Positions 2,178-51,230 of a DNA stretch of 64,000 bases are shown piece by piece (position 1 is the first letter of the stretch; every line of letters begins with the position of its first letter). Below the pieces are notes generated by a model. The model worked only from the letters and a program-made list of their open reading frames with translations. It was not told the origin of the DNA and made no database searches. Origin of the DNA: Clostridium sp. CAG:590 (GTDB taxonomy: Bacteria; Bacillota; Clostridia; Lachnospirales; Lachnospiraceae). Both the position numbers and the translations under genes were made by a program. Location: contig HF987891.1 in assembly GCA_000431135.1 (NCBI GenBank), forward strand, positions 7,286-71,285, written 5' to 3'.

Positions 2178-4109
2178 TTGGAAGGGGAATTTGTTATGAA
2201 GAAGATTAGTTTTAGAGTGAGGAGTTTTGACAAAGAACAATTTCTGACCTTTAACATTGATAATGAGGCTGAGTTGGATGAGGAGCTGTTAGACTACCTG
2301 GAAGAAGAGGAACCGGCAGGGATTGTTCCGGTAATCTTTGAAGAGGGTGAAGAGTTTGATACATTTTCTTATAATGTGACGGATAAGATTCGCTTGAGTG
2401 AATTGTCCGAACAGGAGATCAATGCGGAGATGGTATTGTTAGTACTTCGGGGATTGGTAATGGCACTGATCGATATGGCGGAGTATCGTGTTCCGGTATC
2501 TTATCTTGTGTTGAATCGTCATTATATTTATATTGATTCTGATTACAAAGTAGAATTTGTCTGTATCCCTTTGGAAGAGATGCGAGAGGATGTTGATATC
2601 AGTCATTTCCTCCGTAATTTTCTTGCAAGTCTGCGTTTTGAATCGTCTGACAATGATAATTATGTTGCAAGATTATTTACATATATCAATAATCATGAAG
2701 TATTTAATCTTCGGAATATGTTAAGTCTCGTAGAAACACTTATGGAAGATCTCGGAATTGAGATTCCGGATGATGCGAATGAGATATATGCAGAATATCA
2801 TGAGGTGGAAGAGGTAACATCTGATACGACTGTTCTGACAAGTGAAGAGGAGACGGATATTTCCCGGGTGATGGATGATCTGGCGGCAGCAGAAGAATTA
2901 GATGATGCGGAAGATATTGAAACAGCAATGAGTGATCTGGCGGCACAGAGTGAAGAAGATACCGGCAAACTTGCTGCTGAGGGAGAAGTGGATGAGCCTG
3001 AAAAAGTAGAGGAAGAGGAAGCCGAGGAACTGGAAGAAGCAGCAGAAGAGGAAGGCGAGGAACCGGAAGAGATAGAAGAAGAGGAAGCCGAGGAGCCGGA
3101 AGAGGTAGAAGAAAAGGAAGCCAGCGAGCCGGAAGAGGTAGAAGAAGAGGAAGCCGAGAAGCCGGAAGAAGTAGAGGAAAAGGAAACTGATGAGTCAGAA
3201 TCAGAAGAGGCAGAAGAAGCCGAGAAACCGGAAGAAGTAGAGGAAAAGGAAACTGATGAGCCAAAAGAGGCAGAAGAGAAAACCAAGAAACCGGAAGAAG
3301 TAGAGGGTGAAGAACCGGAGCAAAAACCAGCAAAGAAATCAGTGTTGGAATTAGATGAAGAGAGCCAGGAGATGGTGAACAAACTGAAAGAGAAGCTGGC
3401 CGGAAGCAAGAAAGAGAAACAACCAAAGCATACTGAAAAAGAAATAAAGAAACCTACATTTAAGACAAAAGATACATCATCTGTTGGTGTTGTAATCCAG
3501 GATGATCTGGATGAATTTTTGGCAGAAAAAGAGATGGAGGAACAGGTCACACATCATGAAGATTCTGGTCTTAAGATCCGCAAGAATATCAAAGTCAGCC
3601 GTGCCAGCATTTTAAAGAATACACAGGAAGAATTGAAGGCTGCAGAGGAGAAAGAGGCGGAACAGAAAGCCTTAGAGGAAGTGACAGAAGCGGAAGACGA
3701 AGTGACAGAAGTGGCAGAAACGGAAGATGAAGAAGTAGTAAGCAACTCTATCTTAAGTCAGACAATCAGCGGGGCGACCGGACTGTTAAGAGGCAATGTG
3801 AATGTTCCGAAGGTTAATCCTTATCTGATCCGTGTTAATACGAATGAGAGAATTATGATTACAAAACAGAACTTCAAAGTTGGGAAAGCAAGTATGGGTG
3901 TAGATTATACAGTGAAGGGAAATGGTGCAGTCAGCAGAGTGCATGCAGTGATTATGAACAAAGACGGTATCTATTATATTCGTGATAACAAATCTACAAA
4001 TCATACATATGTAAATGGTAAGATGCTTGAAGAAGGAGAGAATGAATTGTTAACACAGGATTGTAAGATTGTTCTTGGTGATGAGGAATTCATATTCAAG
4101 TTGCGTTAA
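2178..4109 (+). CDS. FHA-domain protein with a long acidic repeat linker
   Basis: 643 aa; C-terminal FHA signature (GKASMGVDYTVKGNGAVSRVHAVI...YYIRDNKSTNHTYVNGK); central E/P-rich repeats EEAEEPEEVEE; RBS GGAAGGGGAA upstream. Confidence 0.8.
   Translation: MEGEFVMKKISFRVRSFDKEQFLTFNIDNEAELDEELLDYLEEEEPAGIVPVIFEEGEEFDTFSYNVTDKIRLSELSEQEINAEMVLLVLRGLVMALIDMAEYRVPVSYLVLNRHYIYIDSDYKVEFVCIPLEEMREDVDISHFLRNFLASLRFESSDNDNYVARLFTYINNHEVFNLRNMLSLVETLMEDLGIEIPDDANEIYAEYHEVEEVTSDTTVLTSEEETDISRVMDDLAAAEELDDAEDIETAMSDLAAQSEEDTGKLAAEGEVDEPEKVEEEEAEELEEAAEEEGEEPEEIEEEEAEEPEEVEEKEASEPEEVEEEEAEKPEEVEEKETDESESEEAEEAEKPEEVEEKETDEPKEAEEKTKKPEEVEGEEPEQKPAKKSVLELDEESQEMVNKLKEKLAGSKKEKQPKHTEKEIKKPTFKTKDTSSVGVVIQDDLDEFLAEKEMEEQVTHHEDSGLKIRKNIKVSRASILKNTQEELKAAEEKEAEQKALEEVTEAEDEVTEVAETEDEEVVSNSILSQTISGATGLLRGNVNVPKVNPYLIRVNTNERIMITKQNFKVGKASMGVDYTVKGNGAVSRVHAVIMNKDGIYYIRDNKSTNHTYVNGKMLEEGENELLTQDCKIVLGDEEFIFKLR
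2990..3320 (+). repeat. Imperfect tandem coding repeat (units about 33-39 nt) encoding an (E-A-E-K/E-P-E-E-V-E-E-K-E)n acidic linker
   Basis: Repeated gaagaggaagccgagga(a/g)ccggaagaggtagaa units; generates the spurious antisense ORFs 2740-3550. Confidence 0.6.
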
Positions 4110-5035: not shown

Positions 5036-7060
5036 ATGACTAGAGTTGGCACTGTATTGGGTGGCAAATATGAAATACTTAAAAAAATAGGGCAAGGTGG
5101 AATGTCTATTGTTTATGTGGCAATGGATACCCGGTTGAACAAGCAGTGGGCGGTTAAGGAGATCAAACAGAATCCGAAACAGGACACAAGAACACTTTTA
5201 AAAGGTTTACAGATGGAAGCTAACATTTTGAAAATGGTAGATCATCCTGTGTTGCCAAGAATTGTTGATATTATTAATTATAATGGAACGGTTTTTGTTG
5301 TAATGGATTATATCGAGGGACGGCCATTGAGTGAGGTGTTGAAGTTAGAAGGAGCGCAGCCGCAGGAAAAGGTGATCGAATGGGCGAAGGATCTGTGTAG
5401 TGCGTTGGATTATTTGCACTCTATGAATCCGCCGATCATTTATCGGGATATGAAGCCGTCTAATATTATGCTGAAACCGGATGGAAAAGTAAAAATGATT
5501 GATTTTGGTACGGCAAAGGAATTTGATGTAGAAAGCCTTGCGGATACGACAGCGCTTGGAACCAGAGGGTATGCAGCGCCGGAGCAGTTTGGGGATGCAA
5601 GAGGGCGAGGTATTCACAAAACAGATGCGAGAACAGATATATATAGTTTGGGTGCAACGCTTTATCATGTACTGACAGGAAAGAATCCAAGTGAACCGCC
5701 GTATGTGATCAAGCCGATTCGTGATTGGGATCCGTCGTTATCAAGTGGATTAGAGAAGATCATTAACAAATGCACTATGCCGAATCCGGAAGATCGTTAT
5801 CAGTCTTGTACGGAGCTGATATATGATCTGGAACATTATGAGGAGTTGGATGATGCATTTAAGAGATCGTGCTTGAAGAAGATGCGCAGCTTTTTGATCT
5901 GCGCGGGGTTGACGGTTACTTTTGCGGCAGTTGCAATTGGTGGATATATCGGAAATGAACGGGAAAAGAAACTGAATTATGATAATCTGATCAACGAAGG
6001 TTATGCAGATGTCGTACAGGGAGATTATGAAGGAGCAGCCGGTTTATATGTAGATGCGATCACGCAGGTAGATGGCAGCCGGAATGAAGCATATCTGGAT
6101 TTGCTGGATTTGTATATCAATTATATGAATGATGCCGAGACAGGACTTAGCAGGGTAACATATTACATAGACCAACAGTACGATTCAATTGATAAGGATC
6201 AGAAATTATTATTGACGGTTGCGATGGATTATTTCGATGTATTAAAAGATTACAAATCCAGTGCATATTATTTTAATATGCTGGATCAGAAAGAACATCC
6301 GGAGGCGGTATATTATTCAACAATCGCACTTGCGATGGGTGAGCTGAATGTAGATTATGAGAGTCTGACGTTTAATTTGAAGAATTTTGAATCAACAAAT
6401 GATGCTTCCACAATTTCAATTAATAAGTTGATGAATTACCGGTTGTTGTGTATTGTATATGCAAGGAATTTGCAGCAAATGGGAGATGCGGCCGACAGAT
6501 TGATCGAAGCGGCGAATAAGGGACTTGCAGTACTTGAAGTATATGATGATGATAGTGTGAAAGCGGAGTATTACACTATTTATAATCAATATCTTGCTCT
6601 TGCATATGAGAGACTTGGACAAAAATATATAGAAGAGGATCCGCAACGCTCACAGGAGAATTACGAAAAAGCATTGGAATGTTGTGATTTTATATTAGGC
6701 ATGGTAACAGCGGGTGACGGCAAGACGGTTGGCAGTATTACAGATGAGAAACTTCGGGAGGCAAAATATTGCCAAAAAGCAGAGATATATGAAATGCTGC
6801 AGGAGTACGACAAGGCGGATGAGGTGTATATTCAGGCTGAGGAGGAGTTTGGCAGGACGAGTATAGCGGTGTATGCCGGACATTTGTCTTTGCTCTGTAA
6901 GATGGAGGAATTGAAGACTACGGATGTTGAAAAATGGGATTATAACAGACTCCATAAGCTTTATGAACAGGGACAACAGGTGCCTGAGATCCAGAATGAC
7001 TATCGGTGGAAACAGCTGACACAGAAGCTTTCTCCATTGTTTGGAAAGAATGGGGGATGA
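5036..7060 (+). CDS. Hanks-type Ser/Thr protein kinase with a single TM helix and a C-terminal helical-repeat (TPR-like) ectodomain, no PASTA
   Basis: GQGGMSIV P-loop, AVKEI, YRDMKPSNIM catalytic loop, DFG, APE; TM near residues 285-305; extracytoplasmic region rich in Y/L/D, about 370 aa. Confidence 0.85.
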   Translation: MTRVGTVLGGKYEILKKIGQGGMSIVYVAMDTRLNKQWAVKEIKQNPKQDTRTLLKGLQMEANILKMVDHPVLPRIVDIINYNGTVFVVMDYIEGRPLSEVLKLEGAQPQEKVIEWAKDLCSALDYLHSMNPPIIYRDMKPSNIMLKPDGKVKMIDFGTAKEFDVESLADTTALGTRGYAAPEQFGDARGRGIHKTDARTDIYSLGATLYHVLTGKNPSEPPYVIKPIRDWDPSLSSGLEKIINKCTMPNPEDRYQSCTELIYDLEHYEELDDAFKRSCLKKMRSFLICAGLTVTFAAVAIGGYIGNEREKKLNYDNLINEGYADVVQGDYEGAAGLYVDAITQVDGSRNEAYLDLLDLYINYMNDAETGLSRVTYYIDQQYDSIDKDQKLLLTVAMDYFDVLKDYKSSAYYFNMLDQKEHPEAVYYSTIALAMGELNVDYESLTFNLKNFESTNDASTISINKLMNYRLLCIVYARNLQQMGDAADRLIEAANKGLAVLEVYDDDSVKAEYYTIYNQYLALAYERLGQKYIEEDPQRSQENYEKALECCDFILGMVTAGDGKTVGSITDEKLREAKYCQKAEIYEMLQEYDKADEVYIQAEEEFGRTSIAVYAGHLSLLCKMEELKTTDVEKWDYNRLHKLYEQGQQVPEIQNDYRWKQLTQKLSPLFGKNGG

Positions 7061-7065
7061 TTGTT

Positions 7066-7971
7066 ATGTATGAGATTATGTTTTATGCAGGAACCGTACT
7101 TGCGTGTCTGTTTTTAATTATATCCATTATTCTATTTATTAAAAATGGTGTATGGAAACTGATGGGAGATGTAACCGGTCTCAATGCAAGAAGAGCGATT
7201 AAGAAATTAGATAAAAAGGGTGCAGAGGATACTTCGAAGACGGAAGCGATTCATCAGGAAGTCAGTAAGGTATTGGTTCGTCGGGCAACTACAACAGGAT
7301 CATTGCAGGCGGTAACGGAATCAATCGAAAAAGACAAAGCGCAAAGATCTGACAGGAAAAAAACACGGAAACGTCGCACAAGAGAAGAAAAGACGATACT
7401 TTTACAGAATACACAGGAGCAGGCTAACAGCAATAATATATTTGAAATAGAAGATGAGATGATCATATTAGCAGGTGACCAAAAAGATTCTGTGGCAAAG
7501 GAAAATGAGGCTGAAGGTGAATACACCACATTGTTGACGCCGGGAGGTTCTGCGAATGTAACGGATGAGAATACAGATGAGATTACGACCCGGTTATATG
7601 CAGAGGATGTTACGACAGATGTACTTTCAGAGGATGACGTGACGGATGTGCTATACACAGAAGAAGACCGGCAGACAGCATTGCTGACGCCGGAAGGAGA
7701 TGACAGTCAGACGACCTTGTTGACACCGGAAGGGGATGATAGTCAGACGACCTTGTTGACGTCGGAAGGAGATGACAGTCAGACGACCTTGTTGACACTA
7801 GAAGGAGATGACAGTCAAACGACCTTGTTGACACTAGAAGGAGATGACAGTCAAACAACATTGTTGACACCGGAGGCGGAGATTACACCGTTTGAGCCGG
7901 TATTACAGGAAGATGAGGAATTAATGAGTCTGTTAAAGGATGCTGTAGCGAAGAATCAAGGCAGAGATTAG
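7066..7971 (+). CDS. Single-pass membrane protein with a charged region and six copies of TTLLTPEGDDSQ
   Basis: N-terminal TM (FYAGTVLACLFLIISIILFI); start chosen at ATG 7066 with GGGGGA RBS (in-frame ATG 7057 overlaps the kinase stop); C-terminal 13-aa tandem repeats. Confidence 0.55.
   Translation: MYEIMFYAGTVLACLFLIISIILFIKNGVWKLMGDVTGLNARRAIKKLDKKGAEDTSKTEAIHQEVSKVLVRRATTTGSLQAVTESIEKDKAQRSDRKKTRKRRTREEKTILLQNTQEQANSNNIFEIEDEMIILAGDQKDSVAKENEAEGEYTTLLTPGGSANVTDENTDEITTRLYAEDVTTDVLSEDDVTDVLYTEEDRQTALLTPEGDDSQTTLLTPEGDDSQTTLLTSEGDDSQTTLLTLEGDDSQTTLLTLEGDDSQTTLLTPEAEITPFEPVLQEDEELMSLLKDAVAKNQGRD
7671..7880 (+). repeat. Near-perfect 39-nt tandem repeat, about 5.5 copies (cagacgaccttgttgacaccggaaggggatgatagt)
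   Basis: Read directly; only 1-3 substitutions per copy. Confidence 0.8.
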
Positions 7972-49376: not shown

Positions 49377-49511
49377 CCCTCCTCTGCTAATTATTGATTA
49401 AACTTATCAATATTATAAAAAAATGGGGGTGTAAAGTCAATCAGTTCTTGACCTGTAGGAATATATGGAGTATGATAGACAAGTATCGCAGATACAGTTA
49501 ATTGCAAAAGA

Positions 49512-49692
49512 ACTTCTCTTATTCAGAGTGGTGGAGTCAGAAGGGACTACGAAGCCACGGCAACCCCATTGTTATTTGGAAGGTGCCGGCCTGAAGCGAG
49601 TTGAGATACTCGGTCAATAAGAGGATTTGGATATAGTGAGCACATAAACTTCAAATCCTCGTGGATTTGGAGTTTTTTTGTAGGGTAATCTT
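49512..49692 (+). ncRNA. SAM-I (S-box) riboswitch with intrinsic terminator
   Basis: P1 CTCTTATTC...GAATAAGAG, GGTGGAG, GGCAACC, GGTGCC conserved blocks; terminator CCAAATCC-tcgt-GGATTTGG + U7; TTGACC/TATGAT promoter about 70 nt upstream. Confidence 0.7.
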
Positions 49693-49887
49693 ATAAGAAA
49701 TGCAAAGCATTTCTTATAGATCGAAAAATATACTTGCAGAGGGCAAGCTTGCTTGCATCCTGCAAGTGTACTTTTTTGATCTGTAGGATGTTTCATCCGT
49801 TATAAGATTGTCCGGAAAAGGAACCGCATAATCCAAGGTCAAGGATTATGAAGGAGATGTAGCGAACGCACAACACTGAGTAAGCTC

Positions 49888-50001
49888 TGCTTACGAAGTG
49901 GATGCCTGCTTACGAAGTGAACGTTTGCTTACGAAGTGAACGTCTGCTTACGAAGTGGATGCTTGCTTACGAAGTGAACATTCCCTCACGCAGTGTCTGT
50001 G
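49888..50001 (+). repeat. 19-nt tandem repeat x5 (plus one degenerate copy): (c/t)tgcttacgaagtg(g/a)a(t/c)g(c/t)
   Basis: Read directly; noncoding (period not a multiple of 3), in the metK 5' leader. Confidence 0.8.
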
Positions 50002-50042
50002 CACAAACCCAGTTTTATTTCAATCAGGAGGAACCATATATT

Positions 50043-51230
50043 ATGGAGAAATTAATTTTTACATCCGAGTCCGTAACCGAAGGACATCCGGATAAGATCT
50101 GTGACCAGATCTCAGACGCCGTATTAGATGCATTGATGGCACAGGACCCAAACAGCCGTGTCGCTTGTGAGACAGCTATTACAACAGGTCTTGTATTAGT
50201 AATGGGAGAGATCTCTACAAAAGGATATGTAGATATTCAGAAGATCGTTCGTGAGACGATCCGTGAGATCGGTTATGACCGTGCAAAATACGGATTTGAC
50301 TGTGATACATGCGGTGTTATCACAGCAATTGATGAGCAGTCAAGCGATATTGCCATGGGTGTAGATAAGGCATTAGAAGCAAAAGAGAATTTAATGAGTG
50401 ATGAAGATATCGAGGCAATTGGTGCAGGAGATCAGGGTATGATGTTCGGTTTTGCATCAAATGAGACAGAAGAGTATATGCCATATCCAATCAGTCTTGC
50501 ACATAAATTAGCAAGAAAATTGACAGAGGTTCGTAAGAATGGAACACTTCCTTATCTTCGTCCGGATGGAAAAACACAGGTTTCTGTAGAATATGATGAG
50601 AATGGTAAGCCGTTCCGTCTTGAGGCAGTTGTATTGTCAACCCAGCATGACGCAGAGGTATCTCAGGAGCAGATTCATGAGGATATTAAGAAGTATGTAT
50701 TTGATGAGATCCTTCCGGCAGATATGGTAGATGAGAACACCAAGTTCTTTATTAATCCAACCGGACGTTTCGTAATCGGTGGCCCGAATGGCGACTCTGG
50801 TCTTACCGGACGTAAGATCATTGTAGACACTTATGGTGGATATGCCCGTCACGGTGGTGGAGCATTTTCCGGTAAGGACTGTACAAAGGTAGACCGTTCC
50901 GCTGCATATGCTGCAAGATATGTTGCAAAGAATATTGTAGCAGCAGGATTAGCTGATAAATGTGAGATTCAGTTGTCTTATGCGATTGGTGTGGCACAGC
51001 CAACTTCTGTTCGTGTAGATACATTTGGAACAAGCAAACTGACAGAGGAAGAGTTGGTAGGCATTGTACGGAAACATTTTGATCTCCGCCCGGCAGGCAT
51101 TATCAAGATGTTAGATCTTCGCCGTCCAATCTACAAACAGACCGCTGCATATGGTCATTTTGGACGTACAGATCTGGATTTGCCATGGGAGAAATTAGAC
51201 ATGGTAGATACATTAAAGCAGTATGCATAA
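50043..51230 (+). CDS. metK: S-adenosylmethionine synthase
   Basis: [25 protein letters not shown]; GGGAFSGKD; start ATG 50043 with AGGAGG RBS. Confidence 0.92.

Follow-up and report, generated by a model that had tools for sequence, protein, structure and literature searches.

A structured spacer with a variable 19-nt repeat array between the SAM-I riboswitch and metK in a human-gut Lachnospiraceae bacterium and two close relatives

Results

Organisation of the metK leader

The window, by which we mean the whole 64-kb stretch of DNA that was analysed, contains a metK gene preceded by an S-box leader with a promoter-like site, a SAM-I aptamer and an expression-platform terminator (Table 1). 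The encoded MetK is identical to CCX88681.1 of Clostridium sp. CAG:590, an uncultured human-gut member of the Lachnospiraceae represented by a MAG, the nearest named relatives by this protein being Coprococcus eutactus (91%), and the neighbourhood of the gene (SipL/LysM, HD, metK, DegV) is chromosomal. Directly 3' of the aptamer a terminator scan finds a 13-pair stem (49646-49675) followed by a U run, and this terminator is kept in relatives with the additional sequence described below as well as in those without it. SAM-I is the sole Rfam family that scores above threshold in the 64-kb window. In most of the metagenome loci a 51-aa ORF has been called atop the SAM-I aptamer (49465-49620), which is almost certainly a false gene. 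On the other side of metK, gene content varies among strains with identical MetK, the strain-variable segment starting shortly past the metK stop codon (window ~51300 onward); DegV, transglutaminase-like and transketolase genes lie downstream in most strains, and PadR and an FtsX-type permease in three (L002, L006 and L008).

Table 1. Features of the metK leader and gene, in window coordinates
Feature	Position	Strand	Basis or details
Promoter-like site of the S-box leader, sigma-70-like, TTGACC-17-TATGAT	49448..49476	+	consensus scan only, 10/12 positions
SAM-I riboswitch aptamer	49516..49623	+	Rfam RF00162, model positions 1-108, 69.5 bits (gathering score 44.4)
Riboswitch expression-platform terminator with U7 run	arms 49641-49658 and 49663-49680	+	terminator and repeat scans
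D1, predicted four-way junction, outer stem GGGUAAUC (49683-49690) / GAUUGUCC (49806-49813) with three hairpins inside	49683..49813	+	folds, RNAalifold
109-nt gap in strains L003 and L095	49691..49799	.	bounded by the 8-bp direct repeat TTATAAGA (49691-49698 and 49800-49807)
Hairpin-0 of D1 ('palindrome'), 12 bp, 3-nt loop	49692..49718	+	repeat scan; arms 49692-49703 and 49707-49718
Long hairpin of D1, ~28 bp, extending to GATC/GATC	49719..49781	+	arms 49724-49748 and 49751-49775
Small hairpin of D1, GGAUG-UUU-CAUCC	49786..49798	+	in allele B, one G-C pair replaced by A-U (compensated)
D2 module	49827..50004	+	hairpin formed by block and repeat arms
Mid hairpin of D2, CAUAAUCC-AAGGUCAA-GGAUUAUG	49827..49850	+	sequence, scan
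Conserved 37-nt block GAAGGAGAUGUAGCGAACGCACAACACUGAGUAAGCU, with SD-like AAGGAG and 5' arm CACUGAGUAAGC (49875-49886 region)	49850..49886	+	
Five 19-nt units, core YUGCUUACGAAGUG and variable linker RAYRYY	49887..49979	+	cores start at 49888, 49907, 49926, 49945 and 49964
3' closing strand CUCACGCAGUGUCUGUGCAC, degenerate last unit, pairing with block GCACAACACUGAG	49985..50004	+	predicted folds
metK ribosome-binding site AGGAGG	50026..50031	+	read from sequence
metK, S-adenosylmethionine synthetase, 395 aa	50043..51230	+	Pfam S-AdoMet_synt N, M and C domains; ATG at 50043

Few regulatory RNAs of bacteria are understood as well as S-box leaders, which as a rule stop shortly 5' of the RBS. Here, a spacer of 363 nt lies between the end of the SAM-I terminator (49680) and the metK ATG (50043), and the distance from the start of the aptamer to metK amounts to 527 nt, as against 170-300 nt in relatives. 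The predicted fold of the spacer reaches -130.3 kcal/mol compared with -88.4 kcal/mol for shuffled sequences (z = -8.0). The initial annotation of this DNA had recognised a structured region between the SAM-I terminator and metK and had called it unusual for S-box leaders, and both statements hold, the spacer being even more structured than was assumed. All the elements that it listed were confirmed, with two small revisions: the palindrome has perfect 12-nt arms around a 3-nt loop, with a total length of 27 nt instead of 30, and the third hairpin, CATAATCC/GGATTATG (49827-49850), has a gap of 8 nt, not 10. The five 19-mers (49887-49979) end ~46 nt 5' of the AGGAGG at 50026-50031.

Distribution and age of the spacer

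Contigs for comparison were gathered by an identical MetK, an identical upstream HD-domain protein or close MetK variants, and metagenomes were also scanned for two adjacent cores of the 19-nt repeat. Altogether 34 metK leaders with the spacer were compared, which come from three species-level lineages with MetK proteins at least 95% identical. The two closest species account for 31 of them, namely the window species and a sister species whose MetK is 97-98%, metK DNA 89-90% and upstream HD gene 76% identical. In the third lineage, called species C (L096-L098), MetK is 95% identical, the flanking genes are different ones and the spacer is present. Relatives with MetK identities of 94% (L101), 93% (L099 and L102), 92% (L100) and 89% (L011) have ~40-60 nt from the S-box terminator to the RBS and no spacer, and no similarity to the spacer was detected in any of the 80 species listed from the genome collection.

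In species C the spacer has strongly diverged in sequence, while its front part again measures 207 nt and the order of its helices is unchanged. The recent insertion that had been proposed is therefore not supported, since the spacer sits at the same place in three lineages in which the sequence has diverged and the helices are the same; the simplest history would be one gain in the common ancestor of the three spacer-bearing lineages. Between the two closest species the leaders are 95-98% identical, exceeding both metK DNA and the HD gene. This high conservation could stem from recent exchange by recombination and not from selection, and the fact that the two main alleles of the front part, A and B, are common to both species fits gene flow.

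Among the compared leaders there was no conserved promoter, terminator or ORF in the spacer. A blastn search of the spacer against plasmids and phages gave no match, and exact-pattern scans of viral contigs returned either nothing or chance matches with flanks at ~25% identity. At the Rfam thresholds the spacer matches no family, riboswitches included, and matches to microRNA-type families were rejected as generic long-hairpin matches. A search of the full-text literature found nothing on repeats in metK S-box leaders and no description of an S-box leader extension of this kind.

A predicted four-way junction in the front part of the spacer

The front part of the spacer is predicted to fold into a module, D1, that consists of an outer stem and three hairpins. 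In single-sequence folds the outer helix joins both flanks of D1 in all ten alleles tested; hairpin-0, the long hairpin and the small hairpin all lie within this helix in alleles A, A2 and C, and the lowest-energy fold of allele B is more rod-like. The strands of this outer stem read GGGUAAUC and GAUUGUCC in allele A, CAAUUC and GAAUUG in allele B of the sister species, and GGUUUAUU and AAUAAACC in allele C. Over five D1 alleles, eight pairs are changed on both sides and 94% of cells are paired, a share that drops to 37-47% if the pairing partners are shifted by 1-3 columns. RNAalifold counts 14 compensated pairs in the aligned front part of 13 sequences. These covariation statistics are thin because they derive from three lineages only, and related sequences can outscore shuffles without any structure.

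The three outer pairs of hairpin-0 covary in species C, where TTATAAG/CTTATAA is replaced by CCTGAG/CTCAGG. The stems of the long hairpin vary freely, with seven pairs changed on both sides among the five alleles and three G-U pairs invariant; its conserved part is the apex, GGGCAAGCUUGCUUGCAUC, which retains a conserved internal loop and is capped by a CUUG tetraloop (49748-49751; G-CUUG-C), and the U6 run at 49772-49777 belongs to its lower stem. The + strand fold of D1 is 9-18 kcal/mol more stable than that of the - strand in each of the ten alleles, and a covariance model of the module scores 150.6 bits on the + strand against 61.4 bits on the - strand. As the sequence comparisons show, the spacer belongs to the metK leader on the mRNA strand and its helices have been maintained across lineages. 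The junction itself contains very few conserved unpaired nucleotides, unlike ligand-binding junctions.

Alleles A and B of D1 are deeply diverged (79% identical) and both occur in both closest species: the window species has 10 leaders with A, 3 with B and 2 without D1, and the sister species 10 with A or A2 and 6 with B. Seen next to HD genes that are 76% identical, this coexistence points to an old (balanced) polymorphism or to gene flow or recombination between the species that is limited to the leader. The two leaders without D1 (L003 and L095) show a gap of 109 nt bounded in the window by an 8-bp direct repeat (Table 1). No allele but A has this repeat in exact form, and A-type sequence flanks the gap. 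Because the more distant species C has the module, we take the gap to reflect secondary loss, not a target site that was never filled, and the loss of D1 in these strains is best read as a deletion between the direct repeats. The remainder of the front part folds into a simple hairpin there, and D1 is dispensable in at least these two strains. A MITE-like insertion with target-site duplication was considered and rejected, as TTATAAGA is restricted to allele A, no other copy was found and species C has the module; the ends of D1, checked for terminal inverted repeats, share only a loose ATG(C)AAA(G)CAT similarity. No further copy was found with a covariance model built from the five D1 alleles in the 64-kb window or in 57 related loci (0.74 Mb).

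A hairpin built from a conserved block and tandem repeats

The second module, D2, starts with the mid hairpin, which in species C has an unrelated counterpart (CUUCGC-AAUCAGUA-GCGAAG) at about the same place. It is followed by a block that differs in species C at just three of its 37 positions (34 identical), although almost everything else there has diverged. The CACUGAGUAAGC of this block is complementary to the core GCUUACGAAGUG of every repeat unit, forming a 12-bp helix in which, by eye, two G/A mismatches face each other in the middle; pairing with the first unit leaves a loop of just UCU. Where the block reads CACU, all units carry A at the facing position (75/75; GAAGUG), and where it reads CACC, as it does in two lineages (L004/L007/L114 and species C), 12 of 15 units carry G (GAGGUG or GAGAUG). 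This covariation, U or C in the block with A or G in the units, supports the pairing between the two. The degenerate last unit takes several forms among strains, including CUCACUCAGUGU and GCUUACUCAG, which complement the block through standard base pairs and close the hairpin in predicted folds. Directly 3' of the mid hairpin the block contains an SD-like GAAGGAGAUG (49850-49859; GAAGGGGAUG in species C, at ~1365-1374 of L096) without usable start-codon spacing, which may be a candidate ribosome-binding stabiliser site.

The array of 19-nt units was delimited by TRF at 49887-49979 (period 19, 4.9 copies, 85% matches, score 130). Its 13-nt core TGCTTACGAAGTG is present in five exact copies and, with up to two mismatches, in nine, as against 1.14 expected, a number reached by no shuffle. 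The array is a true VNTR, or minisatellite, in agreement with one of the options named earlier. Comparison of related metK leaders, which had been suggested as a check, showed that the unit number is 1, 2, 3, 4, 5 or 6, with 21 distinct arrays among the 31 leaders of the two closest species, that this whole range occurs among strains whose MetK protein is identical, and that several strains of both species have a single unit. One and the same five-unit array emerged from three independent assemblies (the window, L009 and L094). Species C has three units with a period of 17 nt. Per-position entropy does not exceed 0.23 bit at core positions 5-15 and is ~0.9-1.4 bit in five of the six linker positions. 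The 19-mer had also been proposed as a query for the rest of the genome: the core has no further exact copy within the 64-kb window, and in the metagenome collection the double core was found in three metK leaders and nowhere else. The scaffold of L107 is broken by Ns within the array. Since short-read assembly is limited by the repeat, arrays with more units may be under-represented.

The array is made up of additional 3' arms of the D2 hairpin, each with a linker of 6-7 nt, and replication slippage probably produced them. As the copies are added 3' arms, the number of units changes the length of the D2 hairpin and leaves its base untouched; the predicted stability from the conserved block to the metK ATG goes from ~-25 to ~-65 kcal/mol as units are added. 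Given that the unit number ranges from 1 to 6 without visible compensation, any effect of copy number must be tolerated.

A coding function of the array was rejected. The ORF starting at 49902, which extends metK upstream through the repeats, had rightly been regarded as an artefact: the extension changes with each allele, and in the sister species a stop codon 15 nt upstream of the ATG closes it. A mini-ORF, AUGAAGGAGAUGUAG, was likewise rejected, not being kept in species C.

Discussion

We propose, with a probability of roughly one half, that the spacer is a lineage-restricted, two-module structured RNA of the metK 5' leader which acts in cis on the read-through mRNA. According to this proposal the S-box promoter would transcribe the spacer only upon read-through of the SAM-I terminator, that is, at low SAM. 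In the resulting metK leader D1 would fold as a four-way junction, and in D2 the near-invariant block would pair through CACUGAGUAAGC with GCUUACGAAGUG in the 12-bp helix, the array units being slippage copies of the 3' arm that lengthen or shorten the hairpin. Candidate roles of such an RNA would be that of a processing or stability determinant (an RNase barrier or entry site), possibly with GAAGGAGAUG holding a ribosome, that of a modulator of RBS access, or that of a compact structure protecting a long untranslated leader. It is probably a cis-acting structure that affects processing, stability or translation of the metK mRNA, and the repeat number would be at most a weak, mostly neutral tuning parameter.

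Both modules have features reminiscent of known systems. D1 resembles the orphan motif Clostridiales-1 (RF01699), from which it is possibly derived. The window D1 scores 33.7 or 26.3 bits against this model (E = 1.5e-5 for 33.7) and the species-C allele L096 34.8-34.9 bits (E = 2e-6), both below the gathering score of 48; we do not call D1 a member of the family because the scores are sub-threshold, allele B gives no match at E up to 1 and the alignments of the window and L096 disagree, putting different parts of the spacer on the model. D1 and Clostridiales-1 have in common a four-stem architecture (an outer stem and three hairpins), occurrence in human-gut Clostridia and a long hairpin with G-CUUG-C, in D1 with the apex GCAAG-CUUG-CUUGC; in the published alignment the first long hairpin bears this cap (Weinberg et al. 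2010, PMC2864571). D1 was also compared with the conserved second (GAG...CGA) and third (GGAUUGCGGGAG...GCAAUCC) hairpins of the family: the second is absent from the window D1, where 52 model positions are skipped, and a GGGAG-hairpin-CG element of species C aligns in L096 only and with its outer pairs mismatched. D1 further differs in its extra 5' hairpin and in being fixed in one leader, whereas the family occurs at many loci. The authors of Clostridiales-1, who describe a large structure of four stems that is very frequent in DNA from the human gut, judged it not to be cis-regulatory (PMC2864571). Several members in the alignment carry the prefix NZ_AAVL02, which we take to denote contigs of one genome assembly.

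The organisation of the leader as a whole recalls that of Bacillus clausii metE, before which Sudarsan et al. 2006 reportedly found SAM-I and AdoCbl riboswitches in tandem: in both cases a further domain that folds independently comes after a complete SAM-I element equipped with a terminator. Unlike in B. clausii, the additional domain here corresponds to none of the known riboswitches, lacks a conserved terminator, can be missing in part in some strains and contains a VNTR. VNTRs upstream of genes are known from contingency loci such as the 7-bp repeats upstream of the Haemophilus influenzae hmw genes. The array shares with them the head-to-tail repeats upstream of a gene and a strain-variable number that most plausibly results from slipped-strand mispairing; it differs in that the gene is a housekeeping gene and the 19-nt unit is an arm of an RNA hairpin in a transcribed leader. 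Firmicutes also possess 5' mRNA stabilisers, such as the STAB-SD of cryIIIA and 5' stem-loops that block RNase J. The conserved GAAGGAGAUG, which lacks a usable start codon and lies 3' of a stable hairpin and far upstream of the RBS, resembles a STAB-SD, a resemblance only, and it differs in its position inside the leader and not at the 5' end, unless the leader is cleaved.

The spacer could alternatively be passenger DNA, D1 being a copy of a multi-copy, Clostridiales-1-like structured repeat and the array a neutral minisatellite, both tolerated with a compact fold that leaves riboswitch and RBS undisturbed. Sub-threshold Clostridiales-1 scores in two diverged alleles (33.7 and 34.9 bits) would agree with such an origin, and so would the abundance of that motif in gut DNA together with the verdict of its authors on cis-regulation (PMC2864571), the assembly prefix shared by several of its members, the presence of D1 in some strains and not in others, the nearest outgroups without a spacer and the hypervariable repeat number; were D1 multi-copy, its compensated 'alleles' could be imports from other copies. 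We nevertheless consider this reading, the main rival, rather unlikely, given that searches of the 64-kb window, of 0.74 Mb of related DNA and of plasmids, phages and viral contigs turned up no second D1, and that the Clostridiales-1 match is lacking in allele B and falls on different parts of the spacer in the other two alleles. Moreover, conservation of the 37-nt block and of the unit cores lies far above the neutral level, covariation between block and units is not expected of junk, and the locus has been retained through three speciation-level splits. Another candidate is a second, SAM-independent riboregulator, in which a protein or small ligand would be recognised by the GCUUACGAAGUG cores or by the D1 junction and the unit number sets the strength of the response, a dial on SAM synthetase that would differ among strains. 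The unit cores are invariant while the linkers drift, the unit is kept in species C despite the 17-nt period, and the D1 long hairpin has its conserved internal loop at the apex. The two facing G/A mismatches seen by eye in the block-unit helix may be added, as such mismatches are a common site of protein or tertiary contacts. On the other side of the balance, several strains of both species manage with a single unit, conserved unpaired nucleotides are very scarce in the D1 junction, the neighbouring genes include no candidate for a binding protein and the Rfam riboswitch matches are limited to SAM-I, which makes a regulator of this type improbable in our view. Similarly doubtful is a bolder version, namely an undescribed cis-regulatory RNA in which D1 is a locus-fixed Clostridiales-1 relative, the GCUUACGAAGUG arms are a platform for proteins or ribosomes and the unit number sets the output of SAM synthetase in each strain; if true, it would amount to an RNA-level contingency dial on a housekeeping gene.

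Two further readings are largely excluded. A second transcriptional checkpoint, with the long hairpin and its U6 acting as terminator or attenuator, or with an internal promoter for SAM-independent transcription of metK, was suggested by a terminator scan that flags 49750-49768 with TACTTTTTTG, as well as a mirror-image site on the other strand, and by 16 nt at 49773-49788 that match the leader promoter around its -35 region. In the window the long hairpin is indeed followed by T6, as noted at the outset, but the second terminator deduced from this does not stand: the U run lies in the lower stem, paired with an A run, and is missing in allele B (UUUCCGG) and in allele C of species C, and the whole hairpin is missing in L003 and L095. 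A second intrinsic terminator, a feature of allele A only, was hence rejected. For the promoter look-alike a spacing of 19 nt would be required, the match is disrupted in alleles B and C, and within the spacer no promoter on the + strand is listed by the scan, so that a checkpoint is very improbable. More improbable still is an element that functions as DNA, either as iteron- or operator-like 19-bp protein sites or as a hairpin read by a recombinase as single-stranded DNA, for which the long inverted repeats of the region might be adduced. Five direct 19-bp repeats do resemble plasmid iterons in size and number. However, pairing is clearly better on the + strand, by way of G-U pairs, the period is 17 nt in species C, copy number is unconstrained, there is no adjoining replication, recombinase or regulator gene, and plasmids and phages gave no match; plasmid-type iterons were rejected on the chromosomal context, the missing plasmid match and the period in species C.

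As anatomy, the S-box riboswitch leader with an added structured, repeat-bearing domain is a solid finding. The metK leader of these bacteria contains 190-420 nt of additional RNA whose structure is conserved and whose length varies, which implies that riboswitch leaders can gain and retain further folded modules. If the resemblance to Clostridiales-1 is real, an orphan gut motif acquires a fixed and testable genetic context. The strains provide a natural allelic series in a near-identical background (1-6 units; D1 of type A, of type B or none), which allows direct tests of how leader structure affects the expression of an essential gene.

The array also matters for annotation, since it leads to spurious extension of MetK at the N terminus and to broken metagenome assemblies. 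Three oversized MetK entries in databases, from related organisms (P0002, P0003 and P0057; 442-516 aa) were examined as possible cases of read-through of the repeats, which was rejected; they contain internal duplications of MetK segments and are most likely assembly errors. Elsewhere in the window, tandem repeats occur within the spans of two long ORFs, one at 2994-3304 with a 33/66-nt period, rich in GAA/GAG, in the ORF 2178-4109, and one at 7681-7874 with a 36-nt period and 5.4 copies in the ORF 7006-7971.
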